Below are positions 3,364-53,461 of a stretch of 64,000 nucleotides of DNA, piece by piece; position 1 is the first letter of the stretch; each line of letters starts with the position of its first letter. The notes under the pieces are model-generated. The model had not been told where the DNA came from and ran no database searches. It was given only the letters and a program-made list of their open reading frames with translations. The position numbers and the translations under genes are program-made. Source of the stretch: Burkholderiales bacterium (GTDB lineage: Bacteria; Pseudomonadota; Gammaproteobacteria; Burkholderiales; JBDZVW01); assembly GCA_035700525.1 (NCBI GenBank), contig DASSON010000080.1, forward strand, positions 16,041-80,040, read 5' to 3'.

Positions 3364-3448
3364 TGGTGCCGACGGCGAGACTCGAACTCGCACGACTTTC
3401 GCCACCGCCCCCTCAAGACGGCGTGTCTACCAATTCCACCACGTCGGC
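3364..3448 (-). tRNA. tRNA-Leu, anticodon GAG
   Basis: Reverse complement reads GCCGACGTGGTGGAATTGGTAGACACGCCGTCTTGAGGGGGCGGTGGCGAAAGTCGTGCGAGTTCGAGTCTCGCCGTCGGCACCA. Hand-folded: acceptor GCCGACG/CGTCGGC, 3-bp D stem GTG/CAC, anticodon stem CCGTC/GGCGG with loop TTGAGGG, long variable arm, T arm GCGAG-TTCGAGT-CTCGC, encoded CCA. Confidence 0.85.
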
Positions 3449-3459
3449 GCCTGAATCCG

Positions 3460-3538
3460 GTGAGGAGTAAGGAGTAAGGTGTAAGGAGTAAAACCGCCCC
3501 GAAATCAACCCCTCACTCCTTACCCCTCACGCCTCACG
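3460..3538. repeat. Heptamer-armed palindromic element, copy 1 (short variant without the GC core)
   Basis: 3460-3487 = GTGAGGA GTAAGGA GTAAGGT GTAAGGA. 3511-3538 = CCTCACT CCTTACC CCTCACG CCTCACG. The arms pair block for block. It fills the spacer between the secG stop (3541) and the tRNA-Leu 5' end (3448). Confidence 0.85.
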
Positions 3539-3540
3539 CA

Positions 3541-3909
3541 TCATTTAGGTATTTCCTGTGTCTTGTCCCGCGGGGCCGATGACGGAGCCGGCGCCGGGGT
3601 CGGGGCCTTCGGCGCGACCGGGGCCGCCTGTTTCTGCGTGGCCGGCGCCATACCCGACATCACGCCTTGCGCGCTGCTCTGGTGCGACGCCAGATAGGTC
3701 AGCCCCATGCTGGTCAGAAAGAATACCGTCGCCAGAATGGCCGTCGCGCGGCTCAGAAAATTGGCGGAGCCGGTGGCTCCGAACATGCTGCCGGAAGCGC
3801 CGCCGCCGAACGCGGCGCCGACATCGGCGCCCTTGCCATGCTGCAGCAATACCAGTCCGACGACGGCTATCGCCACCAATACATGAACTACCAATAGCGC
3901 AATTTCCAT
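3541..3909 (-). CDS. secG: Preprotein translocase subunit SecG
   Basis: ORF 3541..3972 trimmed to the ATG at 3909: MEIALLVVHVLVAIAVVGLVLLQHGKGADVGAAFGGGASGSMFGATGSANFLSR, a SecG signature, followed by a Pro/Ala-rich tail. Confidence 0.85.
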   Translation of the reverse strand: MEIALLVVHVLVAIAVVGLVLLQHGKGADVGAAFGGGASGSMFGATGSANFLSRATAILATVFFLTSMGLTYLASHQSSAQGVMSGMAPATQKQAAPVAPKAPTPAPAPSSAPRDKTQEIPK

Positions 3910-37297: not shown

Positions 37298-37402
37298 GTG
37301 AGGAGTAAGGTGTGAGGTGTGAGGAGTAAGGGGCTTGAAGTTTGCGGCGCGCTCGGCGCGCAGCGCTACCAACTCCTCACTCCTTACCCCTCACTCCTCA
37401 CG
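37298..37402. repeat. Heptamer-armed palindromic element, copy 2
   Basis: 37298-37332 = GTGAGGA GTAAGGT GTGAGGT GTGAGGA GTAAGGG. Core 37333-37374 contains AAGTTTGCGGCGCGCTCGGCGCGC. 37375-37402 = CCTCACT CCTTACC CCTCACT CCTCACG. Lies 1 nt from the folP ATG and 7 nt from the ftsH stop. Confidence 0.9.
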
Positions 37403-44820: not shown

Positions 44821-44926
44821 TATTTTTTAACCGCCAAGCCGCCGAGGACGTCGACATAAAACACAGCACAATATGGACAAACAACACGAATCTTCCGGTC
44901 GACAACACCGGTATTCATCTGTAGTT

Positions 44927-46102
44927 TCAAACAGACGTTCCCGCGTGGCGCCCCTGGCGGCTTGGCGGTTCGCTTTTGTGCTTTTCCATGAGCGTCACAA
45001 ACCGATCAAACAAATAATCGACATCATGCGGCCCCGGGCTCGCTTCCGGATGCCCCTGAAAGCAGAACGCCGGCCGGTCGGTAAACGCAAAACCCTGCAG
45101 GCTGCCGTCGAACAGCGAAACATGCGTGACGCGGCAGTTGGCCGGCAGCGTCGCCGCGTCGACGGCGAAGCCGTGGTTCTGGCTGGTGATCACGACACGG
45201 CCGCTGTCGAGATCGTGCACCGGATGATTCGCGCCGTGGTGCCCGAACTTCATTTTTACCGTCTTCGCGCCGCTCGCCAGCGCCATGAACTGATGGCCGA
45301 GGCAGACACCGAACAGTGGCAGCCTGGTCGCCAGGATTTCCTTCACGGTCGCAATGGCGTAATCGCACGGCTGCGGATCGCCCGGCCCGTTCGACAGGAA
45401 GATGCCGTCAGGCTCGAGCGCCAGCGCCTGCTGCGCGGTGGCCTGCGCCGGCAGCACGGTCACGCGGCAGCCGCGCGACGCCAGTTTTCTGAGGATCGTG
45501 TGCTTGGTTCCGAAATCGTAGGCGACGACGTGAAAGTCCGTCCGCTCCCGCGGCCGGTAGCCATGCTCCAGCGCCCACACGCCCTGATCCCAAGTGTAGG
45601 ATTCGCAGCAGCTCACCACCTTTGCGAGATCCATGCCGTCGAGCCCCGGGAATGCACGTGCCGCGGCCAGCGCCTCCTGCTCGTCGATGCGGCCAGCCAT
45701 GACGGCACCGCGCTGCGCGCCCTTTTCGCGCAGGATGCGCGTCAGCTTGCGGGTGTCGATATCGGCAATCGCGACCACCGCATGCTGCTTCAGATAATCG
45801 GCGAGCGTGTGGGTCTTGCGCCAACTGCTGGCAAGCAGTGGCAGGTCGCGAATCACCAGCCCTGCCGCCAGCACTTCCCGCGCCTCGACATCCTCGGCAT
45901 TGACGCCGGTATTGCCGATGTGCGGATAGGTCAGCGTGATGATCTGGCGGCAGTACGAAGGGTCGGTGAGAATTTCCTGGTAACCGGTCATCGCAGTGTT
46001 GAATACCACCTCTCCTGCGGTGAGCCCTTCGGCTCCGACTGCCGCGCCGCGAAAAATCGTGCCATCCTCAAGCACGAGAATGGCAGGCGGACATTGCGGC
46101 AA
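44927..46102 (-). CDS. carA: Carbamoyl-phosphate synthase small subunit
   Basis: 391 aa with the glutamine amidotransferase triad context GVCLGHQ. The C-terminal ~15 aa ([15 protein letters not shown]) look like an extension. Confidence 0.95.
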
Positions 46103-46242
46103 GAAAAGCTCCCGGTTGCGGCTACTGACATGGAAAGCGGGACAGATCGCCGACCCATCCCGCTTAAAGCTGGGGAAATATTCTACTACAAAACCGGTTT
46201 TGTTTCAACGCGCGCCGGTGCCACGAACGCGCGGCTTGCCGT

Positions 46243-47888
<1,646 letters not shown>

Positions 47889-47956: not shown

Positions 47957-48388
47957 GTGACTTATACCTCCGAACTGAAGAATATCGGCCTCAAGGCGAC
48001 GCTGCCACGGCTGCGTATTCTGGAGCTGTTCGAAAAGAGCGAAGAACGGCATCTGGGCGCCGAAGACGTCTACAAACTGTTGCTCAAGGAAGGCACCGAT
48101 ACCGGACTGGCAACCGTGTATCGCGTGCTGACCCAGTTTGAACAGGCGGGTCTGCTGGTGCGCCACCATTTCGAAGGCGGCCGGGCGGTATTCGAACTCA
48201 ATCGCGGCGATCATCATGATCACCTGGTTTGCCTGCAATGCGGCCACGTCGAAGAGTTTTTTGACGAAACCATCGAAAAGCAGCAAACCACGATCGCGAA
48301 AGATCGCGGCTTTACCATCCACGATCATTCACTCTATCTTTACGCCGATTGCACCAAGGTGAACTGTCCGTTTCGGCACCAGGGATAG
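47957..48388 (+). CDS. fur: Ferric uptake regulator
   Basis: 143 aa with a GTG start. RLRILELF...[15 protein letters not shown] (wHTH), [11 protein letters not shown], and a C-terminal CxxxxC. Confidence 0.9.
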
Positions 48389-48391
48389 GGC

Positions 48392-48488
48392 GTGAGGAGT
48401 GAGGCGTCAGGGGTGAGGGGTGAATAATGCGGCGCGCCAGGCGCGCCGGAAACGTCGACTCCTCACTCCTCACCCCTCACTCCTAACA
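48392..48488. repeat. Heptamer-armed palindromic element, copy 3
   Basis: 48392-48426 = GTGAGGA GTGAGGC GTCAGGG GTGAGGG GTGAATA. Core ATGCGGCGCGCCAGGCGCGCCGGAAACGTCGACT. 48461-48488 = CCTCACT CCTCACC CCTCACT CCTAACA. Starts 3 nt after the fur stop and overlaps the recN 3' end. Confidence 0.9.
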
Positions 48489-50130
48489 TCTCGGCCGCAT
48501 GCCGCCGCGTCGTCGCGGTGATCTTCACGCCACCCAGCATGCGCGCGATTTCCTCGACGCGGGCGTCGCGGCCAAGGGGGGATACGTGGCTGGTGACCTT
48601 GTCCTTGCCGGCATGCTTCACCACCTGCCATTGCGCATCACCGGCGGCGGCGACCTGCGGCAGATGAGTCACGCACATGACCTGGTGATTGCGGCCGAGC
48701 GTCTTCAGCATGCGGCCGACAATTTCGGCAACGCGCCCGCCAATGCCGGCATCGACTTCATCGAAAATCAGTGTCGGCACCTGCGCGACCGAGCTGGTCA
48801 CGGTCTGAATCGCAAGCGAAATGCGTGACAACTCGCCGCCGGAAGCGACGCGGCCGAGCGGACGCAGTTCCGCGCCGGCATGCGTGGCGATCAGAAATTC
48901 GATCCGTTCCAGCCCGTGCGCATTGCCTTCATCGAGCGCATCGAGCACGATTTCGAAACGGCTGCCCCCCAGCGCCAGCCGCTGCATCAGTTCGCTCACG
49001 TCGCGCGCCAGACGGCGCGCGGCTTTCGCCCGTCCCGCGCTCAGTCGGCGCGCACGCTCCAGGTAGCGCGTGTGCGCTTCCTGTTCACGCTGCCGCAGCG
49101 CCTCGAGGTCGCTGCCGGCATCCAGTGCCGCAACGCGCCCGCGCGCTTCATCGAGCAGTGCCGGCAGCGCCTCCGGCTGCACGCGATACTTGCGCGCGGC
49201 CGAATGCAATGCGTCGATGCGACTTTCCACCGTCCGCAGCCGCCGCGGGTCGAGCTCCAGACGTTCACAATAGTGACGCAATGCATAGACCGCTTCCTGC
49301 GCCTGTGCCTGCACCGGGTCAAGGATCGCGATGATGTCACCGAGACTGGTGTCGTAATCCTGCAGATGACGCAGCCGCGACACGACGGCATTGATCTGTG
49401 CCAGCACCGACTGTTCGCTTTCGGAAAGCGCATCCGACGCAAACTGCGCGCCTTCGAGCAGGCTCGCGGCATGGGCCAGGCGCTGGTGTTCCGCGGCCGT
49501 TTCTTCCCATTCACCGGGCGCCGGCGCCAGCGCCTCGAGTTCACGCAGCTGCCAGTCCAGCCGTTCGCGCTCGGCCTCGAGCGCCCGCGCGTCATGTTCG
49601 ACGGCGGCACGCTGCGCCCGTGCTTCCTGCCACGCGCGATGGCCCTGCGCCACGTCAAGGCCGTACTGATGCAGTCCGGCATAACGGTCCAGCAGTTCGC
49701 GCTGCACCGCCGGGCGCAACAGCGACTGGTGCTGATGCTGACCATGGATGTCGACCAGGAATTCCCCGGCTTCGCGCAACTGCTGCACCGTACAGGGCCG
49801 GCCGTTGATGAAGCTGCGCGAACGTCCGCCGGCGTCGATCACGCGCCGCATCAGACAGCCGCCCTCATCGATTGCCAGCGTATTGTCGGCCAGCCAGCGA
49901 CCGACCGCACTGTCCGCGGCAACATCGAATGCTGCGCTGACGTCGGCACGCTCCGCGCCGGCGCGCACCACGCCGGCATCCCCACGCCCCCCAAGCGCCA
50001 GCGCCAGCGCATCGATCAGGATCGACTTGCCGGCGCCGGTTTCACCGGTCAGCACCGTGAATCCCGCATCGAATTCGATGTCGAGGTGTTCGACGACGAC
50101 AAAATTATGGACGCTCAGGCTGCGCAACAT
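48463..50130 (-). CDS. recN: DNA repair protein RecN
   Basis: 555 aa: MLRSLSVHNFVVVEHLDIEFDAGFTVLTGETGAGKSI (Walker A), a long coiled coil and a C-terminal SMC-like ATPase half. Confidence 0.93.
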   Translation of the reverse strand: MLRSLSVHNFVVVEHLDIEFDAGFTVLTGETGAGKSILIDALALALGGRGDAGVVRAGAERADVSAAFDVAADSAVGRWLADNTLAIDEGGCLMRRVIDAGGRSRSFINGRPCTVQQLREAGEFLVDIHGQHQHQSLLRPAVQRELLDRYAGLHQYGLDVAQGHRAWQEARAQRAAVEHDARALEAERERLDWQLRELEALAPAPGEWEETAAEHQRLAHAASLLEGAQFASDALSESEQSVLAQINAVVSRLRHLQDYDTSLGDIIAILDPVQAQAQEAVYALRHYCERLELDPRRLRTVESRIDALHSAARKYRVQPEALPALLDEARGRVAALDAGSDLEALRQREQEAHTRYLERARRLSAGRAKAARRLARDVSELMQRLALGGSRFEIVLDALDEGNAHGLERIEFLIATHAGAELRPLGRVASGGELSRISLAIQTVTSSVAQVPTLIFDEVDAGIGGRVAEIVGRMLKTLGRNHQVMCVTHLPQVAAAGDAQWQVVKHAGKDKVTSHVSPLGRDARVEEIARMLGGVKITATTRRHAAEMLGVRGEE

Positions 50131-50139
50131 TGAAAGTGC

Positions 50140-50229
50140 GTGAGGAGTGAGGAGTCAGGTGTGAGGCGTTAAAGTTTCCGGCGCGCTCGGCGCGCCGCAT
50201 TTTCTACTCCTCACTCCTCACACCTCACG
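50140..50229. repeat. Heptamer-armed palindromic element, copy 4
   Basis: 50140-50174 = GTGAGGA GTGAGGA GTCAGGT GTGAGGC GTTAAAG. Core TTTCCGGCGCGCTCGGCGCGCCGCATTTTCTACT. 50209-50229 = CCTCACT CCTCACA CCTCACG. Lies 9 nt from the recN ATG (50130) and 3 nt from the nadK stop (50233). Confidence 0.9.
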
Positions 50230-50232
50230 TTT

Positions 50233-51105
50233 TTAAAGAAACTCGCTCCAGTGCAGTTTTCCGCGCAGCATATTGTAGTAGCTGTGCCCCACCGGATGCA
50301 GCAGCCGCACCATGTGATCGTAGCGCCGCACCATCACGCGATCGCCTTCGCGCAGGTCGAAGTGGGAGTGACTGTCGCAGTGCGCGCGCGCATCGGCGGC
50401 GTCCTTGATCACGATCTCGACCAGCGAATCACCGCTGATCACGATCGGGCGGTTACTGAGCGTATGCGGGCACACCGGCACCAGCGCCAGCATCGACAGC
50501 GACGGATGCACGATCGGGCCGCCGGCGGACAGCGCATAGGCGGTCGAGCCGGTAGGCGACGCCACGATCAGTCCATCGGAGCGCTGGGTGTAGATGAATT
50601 CGCCGTCGATGCGCATGTCGAATTCGATCATGCTGCCTTTCACGCCCTTGCTCACGACCACGTCATTGAACGCCAGTACGCTGAACACGCTGGACTCGCC
50701 GCTGAACACTTCGACCGACAGCAGCATGCGGTCCTCGGTCATGTAGTGCCCGTCGAGAATCGCGCCCAGCGTCTCGAACATCGTGCCGATCGAAATGTCG
50801 GTCAGAAAACCGAGGCGGCCCTGATTGACCCCGACCAGCGCGACATCGAATGGCGCGAAAGTGCGTGCGATGTTGAGCATCGTGCCGTCGCCGCCCAGCA
50901 CCACCGCCAGATCGGCGCGCCGCCCCATCTCCTCCAGCGTCAGCGCGGGATAGGAATGGGCGCTCGCATGCGCACCGGACAGCCGGTCGAGCAGCACGTC
51001 GACACCGCGGCCTTCGAGAAATCGCGCGAGTTCGAGCAACGGCCCGATGATTTCCGGACTTTTGTACTTGCCGATCAGCCCGACGCATGAGAATGACGGT
51101 TTCAT
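50233..51105 (-). CDS. nadK: NAD kinase
   Basis: 290 aa with the GGDGT motif (VVLGGDGTMLN) and the PpnK-like C-terminal domain. Confidence 0.9.
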   Translation of the reverse strand: MKPSFSCVGLIGKYKSPEIIGPLLELARFLEGRGVDVLLDRLSGAHASAHSYPALTLEEMGRRADLAVVLGGDGTMLNIARTFAPFDVALVGVNQGRLGFLTDISIGTMFETLGAILDGHYMTEDRMLLSVEVFSGESSVFSVLAFNDVVVSKGVKGSMIEFDMRIDGEFIYTQRSDGLIVASPTGSTAYALSAGGPIVHPSLSMLALVPVCPHTLSNRPIVISGDSLVEIVIKDAADARAHCDSHSHFDLREGDRVMVRRYDHMVRLLHPVGHSYYNMLRGKLHWSEFL

Positions 51106-51236
51106 GGCGGCATTAAACCATAATTCGCCGCGCCACGGCAGCGTGAAATCCGCAGATAATGAAATGGTTACTTCGCGTGACCGCGAACCTTGTGACGCCC
51201 ATTTCGGTATGTGTAGAATACCCGTCGAGATCCGCC

Positions 51237-52265
51237 ATGAATCTGATACTCAGCGAACGCGCCCAACTCCTGCTCAAAACACTCGTCGAACGCTATATTG
51301 CGGAAGGCCAGCCGGTCGGGTCGCGCACGCTTTCACGCTACTCCGGACTGGATCTGAGTCCCGCCAGCATCCGCAACGTGATGGCGGACCTCGAGGAGCT
51401 GGGGTTCATCGTCAGCCCGCATACTTCGGCCGGACGCATTCCGACCGCACGCGGCTATCGCTTCTTCGTCGATACCCTGCTCACCATCCAGCAGCTCGGC
51501 ACCATCGAAATCAGCCAGCTCGGCGGCCAGCTGCAGGCGGAGAACACACACCGGCTGGTGTCGTCGGCATCGCAACTGTTGTCCGACCTGACGCGCTTCG
51601 CCGGCGTCGTCGTCACCCCGCGCCGCAGTCCGGCGTTCCGCCACATCGAGTTTCTCGGCCTGTCGGAAAAGCGCATCCTGCTGATCATCGTCACGCCCGA
51701 CGGCGACGTGCAGAATCGCATCCTCGTGACCGAAAACACCTATTCGCCGGCGATGCTGGTGGAGGCCGGCAACATTCTGAATCAGAATTATGCCGGACTG
51801 TCGTTCGACGAAATCCGCCGGCGCATTCAGCAGGAGCTGAAGGAGCTGCGCGAAAACATGACGCGTCTGATGACTGCCGCGCTCGAGGCCGGCAGCCAGG
51901 CCGCCGACGAATCGTCCGAAAACTACGTGATCTCGGGCGAAAGCAATCTGCTGGAAGTGCAGGATCTGTCATCGAACATGGCCAGCCTGCGCCAGTTGTT
52001 CGACCTGTTCGAGAAAAAGACCGGCCTGCTGCAACTGCTCGACAGCAGTTCGCGCGCGCAGGGCGTGCAGATCTTCATCGGCGAGGAATCCGGGCTGGCG
52101 CCGCTCGACGAGTGCAGCGTGGTGACCGCCTCCTACGAGGTGGACGGCCAGGTCGTCGGCACGGTGGGCGTCATCGGACCCACGCGCATGGCTTACGAAC
52201 GCGTCATTCCGATCGTCGATATTACCGCGAAGCTGATGTCGAGCGCGCTGTCGCAGCACCCGTAG
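51237..52265 (+). CDS. hrcA: Heat-inducible transcription repressor HrcA
   Basis: ORF 51159..52265 trimmed to the ATG at 51237: [33 protein letters not shown]. Divergent from nadK. Confidence 0.9.
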
Positions 52266-52268
52266 CGA

Positions 52269-52358
52269 GTGAGGCGTGAGGTGTCAGGAGTGAATAACGC
52301 GGCGCGCCATACGCGCCGGAAACTTGAACTCCTCACTCCTTACCCCTCACGCCCCACG
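52269..52358. repeat. Heptamer-armed palindromic element, copy 5
   Basis: 52269-52296 = GTGAGGC GTGAGGT GTCAGGA GTGAATA. Core ACGCGGCGCGCCATACGCGCCGGAAACTTGAACT. 52331-52358 = CCTCACT CCTTACC CCTCACG CCCCACG. Starts 3 nt after the hrcA stop and ends 2-8 nt before the hemH start. Confidence 0.9.
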
Positions 52359-52366
52359 CCTTGCTA

Positions 52367-53461
52367 ATGTCCGTTTTCCGCGCCTCTCCCCCGTATCATC
52401 ACGGCACGCCGGCAAAAACCGGCGTGCTGCTGGTCAATCTGGGCACGCCGGAAGCACCGACGGCGCAAGCGGTCAAGCCGTACCTGCGCGAATTTCTGAG
52501 CGATCCGGCGGTGGTGGAACTGCCGCGCCTGATCTGGCAGCCGCTGCTGCATCTGTTCGTACTCACCACGCGGCCGCGCCGTACTGCGGAAAAATACGCC
52601 GAAATCTGGATGGCCGACGGCTCGCCGCTCAAGGTCCATACCGAGCGCCAGACGAAACTGCTGCGCGGCTATCTCGGCGAGCGTATCCGGACACCGCTGG
52701 CGGTTGAGTACGCGATGCGTTACGGCATGCCGGCGATCGGAGAAAAACTCGACGCGCTGATCGCGCACGGCTGCGACCGCATCCTGATCGTGCCGCTTTA
52801 TCCGCAGTACGCGGCAAGCACCGTAGGCAGCACGTGCACGGCCGTGTTCCGCCACGCCGCCACACTGCGCAGGATGCCGGCGCTGCGCACGATCACGCAT
52901 TTTCACGACCATCCGGGTTACATCGCGGCACTCGCGCAGAGCGTGCGCGAGCACTGGTCGCGCAACGGCCGGCCCGACCTGCTGCTGATGAGCTTTCATG
53001 GCGTGCCGCGCTACACACTGACCAAGGGCGATCCGTATCATTGTGAATGCCAGAAAACGGCGCGCCTGCTGGCACGTGAGCTGAATCTGCCCGAACATGC
53101 GTACCGGGTATGCTTCCAGTCCCGTTTCGGTCGCACCGAATGGCTCAAGCCGTACACGTCGGCCACGCTGGTCCAGCTCGGGCGCGAACAAACCGGACGG
53201 GTCGACGTGATCTGCCCCGGCTTCGTATCGGATTGCCTGGAGACGCTGGAAGAAATCGCGATCACCAACAAGGCGGCATTCCTCAACGCCGGGGGCGGCG
53301 AATTTCATTTCATTCCGTGCCTGAATCAGCGCGATGACTGGATGCGCGCGCTATCCGACATCGTGTTCGACAACCTGCTGGGCTGGCCCGCGGGCACGCC
53401 CGACGCCACCGAGGCGGAAACGGCGCGCCGGCGCGCGCTGGAAATGGGCGCCCAGGATTAG
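52367..53461 (+). CDS. hemH: Ferrochelatase
   Basis: ORF 52361..53461 (TTG at 52361, first ATG at 52367). [10 protein letters not shown]...YLREFLSDP...PLYPQY..ST, typical of HemH. Confidence 0.9.

Follow-up and report, generated by a model that had tools for sequence, protein, structure and literature searches.

A heptamer-array hairpin repeat in the nadK-recN spacer of an uncultured Burkholderiales bacterium

Results

The nadK-recN locus and the repeat in its spacer

The window, i.e., the whole 64-kb stretch of Burkholderiales contig DASSON010000080.1 that was analysed, carries recN downstream of nadK on the minus strand, and the spacer between the two genes (50131-50232, 102 nt) is occupied almost entirely by a hairpin-forming repeat that we call copy 4. 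The features of the locus are as follows.

47957-48388, plus strand: fur, convergent with recN; its stop codon stands in a heptamer-phase position immediately outside repeat copy 3
48463-50130, minus strand: recN, 555 aa, matched from residue 1 by the NCBIfam RecN profile (equivalogs; E=8e-165), with its ATG at 50130
50131-50139, minus strand: 9-nt linker GCACTTTCA joining the hairpin to the recN ATG
50140-50229, minus strand: the hairpin repeat built of heptamer arrays (copy 4), which covers 90 of the 102 nt (88%) between nadK and recN
50233-51105, minus strand: nadK, NAD kinase, 290 aa, profile match with E=4e-123, stop codon TAA at 50235-50233
51237-52265, plus strand: hrcA, divergent from nadK across an intergenic region of 131 nt (51106-51236)

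To the right of nadK, gene calls and profile matches give hrcA and then hemH in divergent orientation, and on the other side the gene calls on identical metagenome contigs give fur, convergent with recN, followed by bamE, dapB and carA. The 3' end of recN (48463-48487) lies inside an arm of copy 3, which supplies its last seven codons and the TGA stop; the resulting RecN tail, LGVRGEE, is not longer than the variable tails of relatives. No CIRCE/HrcA operator was found in the 64-kb window.

On the minus strand, copy 4 opens with a 5' G-arm (approximately 50229-50206) that reads (C)GTGAGGT GTGAGGA GTGAGGA GT, continues through the linker and core AGAAAAT GCGGCGCGCC GAG CGCGCCGG AAACTTTAACG, and closes with a 3' C-arm (approximately 50167-50140) that reads CCTCACA CCTGACT CCTCACT CCTCAC. 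The core palindrome, GCGGCGCGCC-GAG-CGCGCCGG at 50197-50179, has 8 GC pairs. Outside the repeat, only three nucleotides (AAA) separate the nadK TAA from the hairpin base, and the linker GCACTTTCA, in which no Shine-Dalgarno motif is present, leads to the recN ATG. The predicted RNA fold has a free energy of -54 kcal/mol (z=-8.06), and none of 200 shuffled sequences was equally stable; in this minimum free energy structure, the recN AUG pairs with the bases directly 3' of the nadK stop codon.

A preliminary description of this DNA had placed copy 4 at 50140-50229, the nadK stop at 50233-50235 and the recN ATG at 50130, and these positions hold. The measured coverage likewise bears out its statement that the repeat fills the nadK-recN spacer, and reading the sequence confirmed the order it gave for the minus strand, i.e., G-rich arm, core, C-rich arm.

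A family of heptamer-array repeats at gene junctions

Copy 4 is a member of a dispersed intergenic hairpin repeat family located in gene junctions of this uncultured Burkholderiales-like bacterium. The family plan consists of two inverted arrays of a 7-nt unit (GTGAGGN / NCCTCAC), which in most copies surround a central GC palindrome. Matches to GTGAGGAGTGAGGAG with at most 3 mismatches number 32, as against 1.35 expected by chance, and nhmmer with a profile of the copies places five of them, and no more, in the window, with E-values from 1e-9 to 2e-26. Three further copies were found on same-population contigs that reach 6-7 kb past the left edge of the window, approximately 5-6.5 kb to the left of window position 1, which brings the total to eight copies, all at gene junctions, over about 70 kb of this organism's DNA. 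The copies other than copy 4 are listed below, those in the nuo operon with coordinates on contig L105.

3460-3537, minus strand: copy 1, between secG and tRNA-Leu (3364-3448), a variant without the GC core, with the secG stop 3 nt upstream
37298-37401, minus strand: copy 2, filling the ftsH-folP spacer, beginning 8 nt past the ftsH TGA, with a single nucleotide left before the folP ATG
48392-48487, plus strand: copy 3, between the convergent fur and recN, beginning 3 nt past the fur TAG, with the canonical core on the plus strand
52269-52357, plus strand: copy 5, filling the hrcA-hemH spacer (52266-52366), beginning 3 nt past the hrcA TAG; the hemH ATG at 52367 follows its end by 9 nt
19197-19274 of L105: nuoI-J copy, beginning directly after the TGA and ending 10 nt before the ATG; spacer 88 nt
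19883-19965 of L105: nuoJ-K copy, with its G-arm inside nuoJ; spacer 69 nt
20281-20368 of L105: nuoK-L copy, with a degenerate G-arm, ending 9 nt before the ATG; spacer 88 nt

Co-directional genes flank seven of the eight copies (secG-tRNA, ftsH-folP, hrcA-hemH, nadK-recN and the three nuo junctions). The remaining nuo junctions measure 36, 30, -8, -4, -4, 10, -1 and 3 nt, and nuoL-M measures 16 nt.

Each arm comprises 3-5 units, in which G1, T2, A4, G5 and G6 are invariant and positions 3 and 7 vary, and the best array period is 7. The element is palindromic, so that the G-arm comes first on either strand. Its position relative to the upstream gene is regular: the G-arm begins 3 nt past the upstream stop codon in copies 1, 3 (counted from fur), 4 and 5, 8 nt past it in copy 2 and 0 nt past it at nuoI-J, and in copies 1, 3 and 5 the upstream stop stands in unit phase within the adjoining heptamer. 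The arrays run into the ORF ends of recN, nuoJ and nuoK. Because every unit holds a TGA or TAA, and because 7 and 3 share no factor, three units of a G-arm suffice to close all reading frames, whichever strand is read; in 8 of 10 arm reads all three were closed within 31 nt.

The core of copy 4 is oriented opposite to those of copies 3 and 5. The preliminary description had noted that copies 3 and 4 flank recN with opposite cores, and indeed AATGCGGCGCGCC...CCGGAAAC reads on the plus strand in copy 3 and on the minus strand in copy 4. We do not claim that the arms are co-oriented with only the core flipped, as the arm-only alignments are ambiguous (scores of 40 vs 33 and 35 vs 33). This bracketing of recN is an expression of the family's habit of occupying gene junctions and is nothing specific to recN. 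A composite transposon formed by copies 3 and 4 around recN was considered and is ruled out by the nadK-recN synteny, which is universal and older than the elements.

A search of the metagenome for GCGCGCCGGAAAC-N7-CCTCAC returned 13 matches with no convincing copy among them and one partial resemblance (L098), and a literature search found no description of GTGAGGN elements. Variants of the G-arm with GTAAGGAGTGAGG (3460-3537, 37298-37401, 52329-52343) come close to an extended Shine-Dalgarno sequence (TAAGGAGGTGA with one G missing), and the C-arm sequence CTCCTTAC resembles the 16S rRNA 3' end. Both likenesses are probably coincidental; the elements built from other units in relatives do not have them.

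The region upstream of recN lacks a LexA box

The preliminary description had reported, by eye, that a CTGT-N8-ACAG box is missing before recN. A string search agrees, with no exact or one-mismatch core upstream of the gene, and so does a position weight matrix (PWM) scan of 50090-51300, i.e., from recN across nadK as far as the hrcA/nadK intergenic region, in which the best score was -4.8. The matrix, built from E. coli LexA sites, spans 20 nt. It scores the E. coli recN boxes at 24.5, 17.8 and 14.9, a control that is partly circular in that the recN sites are in the training list, and, as an independent control, it scores betaproteobacterial LexA boxes at 19.9-23.5. No box of the type found at the nadK promoter in Massilia and Duganella was present in 51080-51260, and the alphaproteobacterial, Gram-positive, Xanthomonad and cyanobacterial LexA motifs were all absent from recN to upstream of nadK. 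The sole exact CTGT-N8-ACAG match in the 64 kb lies at 44919-44934 (CTGTAGTTTCAAACAG, PWM score 12.7), at the carA-carB junction. It was rejected as a real LexA box: 39 of 100 shuffled sequences also contain a match, a frequency consistent with chance.

recN loci across betaproteobacteria

We compared the recN loci of 80 betaproteobacterial species, of which 79 include the recN 5' end and are therefore informative and 77 have a measurable spacer. In all 79 informative loci, nadK lies immediately upstream of recN on the same strand. The 77 measurable spacers have a median length of 30 nt; 14 are 10 nt or shorter, five pairs of genes overlap by 1 nt, one spacer is 0 nt long, and 25 are at least 60 nt.

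The preliminary description had started from the premise that recN is normally LexA-regulated from its own promoter, and had pointed to the upstream regions of relatives as a place to look. That premise is centred on E. coli and fails in this lineage, and the box is missing in the relatives too: no LexA-like site with a score of at least 12 lies within 300 nt of recN in any of the 77 betaproteobacteria, the best being a GTGT-N8-ACAG with a score of 5.4 in L011. It has been reported that recN is not regulated by LexA in alpha- and beta-Proteobacteria (Sanchez-Alberola et al. 2012, PMC3323433). The missing box is thus no anomaly, since betaproteobacterial recN generally lacks one, and copy 4 did not displace an operator, since the box is equally absent from species that have no element (L002, L005, L008 and others). 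In short, the absence of the box is an already published trait of the class and is not caused by copy 4.

A strong LexA box (TACTGT-N8-ACAGTA, PWM score 19.9-23.5) does occur about 110 nt upstream of nadK in five Massilia/Duganella loci (L028, L031, L032, L046 and L049). In L046 (2920-2980), the box directly follows a TTGCAG-17-TATACT promoter upstream of nadK. Judging by this arrangement, the nadK-recN pair of Massilia and Duganella appears to be SOS-controlled as an operon through the nadK promoter.

Variation of the elements among strains and relatives

Relatives L101-103, with 85% RecN identity, have an orthologous copy 4 with the same flanks and core orientation and four units per arm, such that their spacer is 109 nt long vs 102 nt in the window (+7). 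In L100 (90% RecN identity), the nadK-recN spacer (2320-2428) harbors a hairpin built from a different unit, GATGAAG/TTCATCC, with an unrelated loop and no GC core; the same genome has a GTGAGGN copy at hrcA-hemH, and its recN 3' end also has GATGAAG-type units. Elements seem to have been replaced at this site. More distant relatives with 61-65% RecN identity (L001, L003 and L004) also have period-7 hairpins in the nadK-recN spacer, with the units GAGAGGC/GGTGAAG, GTGATGA and GGTAAGT, beginning 2-4 nt past the nadK stop, and in L002 and L005 the spacers are empty and measure 22-24 nt.

Variation was also found within the other copies. Copy 1 has a +14-nt population allele in L105 (10430-10460 vs window 3538-3545), which amounts to two extra heptamers, one of which duplicates sequence including the secG stop codon. 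Copy 3 is decaying in L101 (2138-2195) and L103 (2098-2127) relative to the window (48392-48462): half of the core palindrome is gone in L101 and L102, and a further 28 nt are deleted in L103, though the encoded RecN is identical. The nuoI-J G-arm is degenerate in L106 and L107. At hrcA-hemH, the L102 copy (2426-2523) has its core inverted, relative to the flanking genes, when compared with window positions 52269-52357. Five consensus contigs from the same population as the window (L081-L085) have the core orientation of the window and differ by SNPs, with no flips. The structures evolve fast and are prone to slippage, and they either persist at the same junctions or come back to them repeatedly.

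A near-perfect palindrome unrelated to the family, with about 20 bp per arm, was observed in the 157-nt nadK-recN spacer of Noviherbaspirillum aerium (L020, 3920-3985; z=-5.2). From this example, the nadK-recN junction attracts other hairpin repeats as well.

Discussion

Comparison with known repeat systems

The nearest described system is that of the Xanthomonas heptamer repeats in convergent inverted pairs. The unit there is GGGAATC, each genome contains 70-75 of these pairs, and most of the repeats are transcribed (Rehm et al. 2015, PMC4692102). The two systems share tandem 7-nt units that are mostly intergenic with a preference for co-directional ORFs, a G-rich strand that is the sense strand and lies at most 50 bp from, or overlaps, a stop codon, and a C-rich strand just upstream of the next ORF; in both, opposite-strand arrays lying close together can form stem-loops, and the number of units varies between strains (PMC4692102). 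The elements described here show paired opposite arrays, placement at co-directional junctions in 7 of 8 copies, and unit-number variation in copy 4 (+7 nt in L101-103) and copy 1 (+14 nt in L105). Unlike in Xanthomonas, the unit is GTGAGGN with GG rather than GGG and is not an obvious G-quadruplex former (GGGG is sporadic, e.g., in copy 3), the GC-palindrome core of most copies is conserved and has asymmetric linkers (A-rich and GAAAC), each unit contains a TGA or TAA, and the host is an uncultured betaproteobacterium.

Similarities to the REP/BIME/REPIN elements of Enterobacteria and Pseudomonas are also apparent. Those too are dispersed extragenic palindromes at operon junctions and 3' ends that form stable stem-loops and are co-transcribed with genes. 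REPs are said to stabilise upstream mRNA, in work attributed to Newbury in 1987, and those lying less than 15 nt from a stop codon reportedly lower the expression of the upstream gene, a finding credited to Liang, Rudd and Deutscher in 2015. REPINs are described as inverted doublets (PMC3116915), and the eight copies in about 70 kb are likewise extragenic, high-copy, hairpin-forming inverted doublets. Whereas REP/BIME has a single imperfect palindrome, the GTGAGGN arms consist of heptamers in tandem; they have no GTAG head as such, and genomes related to the window use different units at the same sites.

The TAACTGA heptamers of Beggiatoaceae and the cyanobacterial STRR heptamers resemble the present family in being intergenic heptanucleotide arrays near start and stop codons whose units bear stop codons, so that three units close all frames, and whose arrays overlap ORF ends by a few units only (PMC4679880). 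They differ in being direct repeats that almost never form inverted pairs, lie mostly just upstream of starts and have no core (PMC4679880). MITEs such as Correia, ERIC and Nezha share with the family a length of about 100 bp, inverted termini, many copies and insertion in operons; unlike MITEs, GTGAGGN elements have internally repetitive termini and no known parent IS. By inspection, none of the five window copies is flanked by a direct repeat that could be a target-site duplication, which leaves MITE membership unsupported; the empty L002 and L005 sites are too diverged to align.

The E. coli recN locus has the same order of a heat-shock gene, nadK and recN with bamE nearby, and a spacer of similar length (85 nt vs 102 nt in the window). 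In contrast, the E. coli spacer has three LexA boxes and its own promoter, whereas the window spacer has none and is 88% hairpin repeat.

Read-through of a passenger hairpin

We consider it probable that nadK and recN form a conserved transcription unit in which recN is transcribed from the nadK promoter through copy 4, a passenger hairpin with a modulatory effect. On this reading, the promoter of the pair must be located in the 131-nt hrcA/nadK intergenic region (51106-51236). Transcription from it would pass through copy 4 into recN, and the RNA would contain a very stable stem-loop whose base lies 3 nt past the nadK stop on one side and 9 nt short of the recN AUG on the other. On the model of REP/BIME elements, the hairpin would probably shield the nadK message from 3' exonucleases and lower or uncouple recN translation. 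From the sequence, we infer co-transcription of nadK and recN, together with any effect of the hairpin on the mRNA, as the likeliest account, and the hairpin itself is most likely neither an operator nor a promoter nor an intrinsic terminator.

The preliminary description had left three options for recN, namely read-through from nadK, promoter activity of the element, and RNA-based regulation. Read-through is favoured by the universal nadK-recN adjacency, by the small or overlapping spacers and by the box at the nadK promoter in Massilia and Duganella. The other two options fared less well. A sigma-70 scan of low sensitivity gave no promoter-like match on the recN strand; the scan detected no promoter at all on the minus strand, that of nadK included, which makes it weak evidence that the spacer is silent. 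RNA-based regulation gained no positive support, with neither an Rfam family nor covariation: at gathering score, Rfam 15 detected only tRNA-Leu in the window (a relaxed scan added sub-threshold eukaryotic miRNA hairpins), and across the eight copies there was one compensatory pair, with a covariation term of -0.09, where only invariant positions pair and variable ones do not.

As for termination, copy 4 has the GC-rich stem-loop of an intrinsic terminator (-54 kcal/mol), and no U-run was found 3' of the stem on the recN strand, where the outer stem is followed by GCACUUUCAAUG and the core by GAAACUUUAA. The terminator scan flagged solely the antisense side of the copy 4 core, i.e., the plus strand. 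We further infer that the elements let transcription pass because hairpins of this family occur within the nuo operon, and its distal subunits still have to be produced. Nevertheless, a hairpin of -54 kcal/mol could pause or partly stop RNA polymerase or trigger Rho. A rule whereby operon-internal copies face the non-terminating way fits copies 2, 4 and 5; it was rejected on account of the flipped L102 hrcA-hemH copy and the weak T-runs.

Alternative explanations

One alternative is that the hairpin bridges translation rather than being a passenger: the stem would join the nadK stop (3 nt away) to the recN AUG (9 nt away), and a ribosome terminating on nadK would melt its base and re-initiate on recN, which has no Shine-Dalgarno sequence. 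This would preserve the coupling seen in relatives with 0-30-nt spacers. The distances to stop and start recur, being 3 and 9 nt in copies 4 and 5 and 0 and 10 nt at nuoI-J, with the nuoK-L copy ending 9 nt before the ATG, and the hairpins of L001, L003, L004, L100 and L102, which are orthologues or consist of other units, begin 2-4 nt past the stop. No Shine-Dalgarno sequence precedes recN, hemH, folP, nuoJ or nuoL, the neighbouring nuo junctions overlap, implying that coupling is the norm there, and the predicted fold brings the recN AUG into pairing next to the nadK stop. However, recN is also without a Shine-Dalgarno sequence in relatives that have no element, the geometry may be no more than a consequence of insertion where the spacer was tiny to begin with, and the AUG pairing amounts to five weak pairs that are missing at nuoI-J. 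At nuoJ-K, moreover, the stop falls after the G-arm and nuoK has a GGGAGGG of its own. We know of no bacterial precedent for hairpin-bridged re-initiation, and regard this explanation as unlikely.

An extension of this idea would have stop, hairpin and start form a selected module of operon punctuation, in which the G-arm closes the frames, the stem protects the upstream message and ribosomes re-initiate across approximately 90 nt. We hold this to be somewhat less likely still. If true, it would represent a bacterial analogue of ribosome shunting and would explain why repeats persist at nadK-recN and hrcA-hemH across lineages with 61-85% RecN identity.

No greater likelihood than that of the punctuation module attaches, in our estimation, to a transcriptional attenuator or insulator, in which the hairpin would stop or pause most polymerases past nadK and leave recN with low, conditional read-through. 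The very stable stem does begin right past the stop codon, and BIMEs reportedly attenuate transcription, as Espeli and colleagues are said to have found in 2001. Also in its favour, the heptamer repeats of Xanthomonas coincide with transcript starts or ends more often than controls do (PMC4692102). It is opposed by the lack of a sense-strand U-tract, the only terminator call being on the antisense side, by the three copies within the nuo operon, where the downstream subunits are required, and by the copies at ftsH-folP and hrcA-hemH.

It is very improbable that the element carries or creates a recN promoter, possibly one under a damage regulator other than LexA. While the element fills the sole non-coding DNA before recN and a weak -10-like TAGAAA adjoins its core, the recN strand shows no -35/-10 match and the element is rich in G and C. 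It is moreover found behind genes, ahead of a tRNA and within nuo, and the 0-24-nt spacers of relatives leave no room for a promoter.

An invertible switch, in which recombination between the inverted arms flips the core of about 37 nt and moves a weak terminator-like hairpin with its T-rich tail to the other strand, has just as slight a chance: the core orientation does differ between copy 4 and copies 3 and 5, and between the window and L102 at hrcA-hemH, and one side of the core has ATTTTCT or ATTATTC, with a terminator-like call for copy 4 on the plus strand, but the five same-population contigs (which are consensus contigs) have SNPs without flips, the T-run is weak or absent in copy 2 and in copy 5 of L102, the L102 copy, which lies within an operon, has the orientation that is supposed to terminate, and no recombinase is known.

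Significance

For recN, the comparison removes an apparent anomaly, as SOS-independent, nadK-driven expression would be the betaproteobacterial norm. With this repeat family, heptamer-array hairpins, a class that is poorly understood, are now seen in uncultured Burkholderiales in addition to Xanthomonas, and the family shows ongoing slippage of units (alleles of 7 and 14 nt), decay and inversion of the core. The stop-proximal geometry in essential operons could be used to test whether large hairpins between coupled genes are tolerated or exploited.

Additional length polymorphisms

Two further observations concern genes to the left of recN. The bamE gene (47085-47888) is called at 244 aa on most contigs and at 259 aa on one sample's contig, which suggests an in-frame 45-nt length polymorphism. 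In addition, a 19-nt indel polymorphism lies 3' of dapB (46215-46233) between two CGCGCGTT direct repeats, the 19 nt being missing in contig L083.
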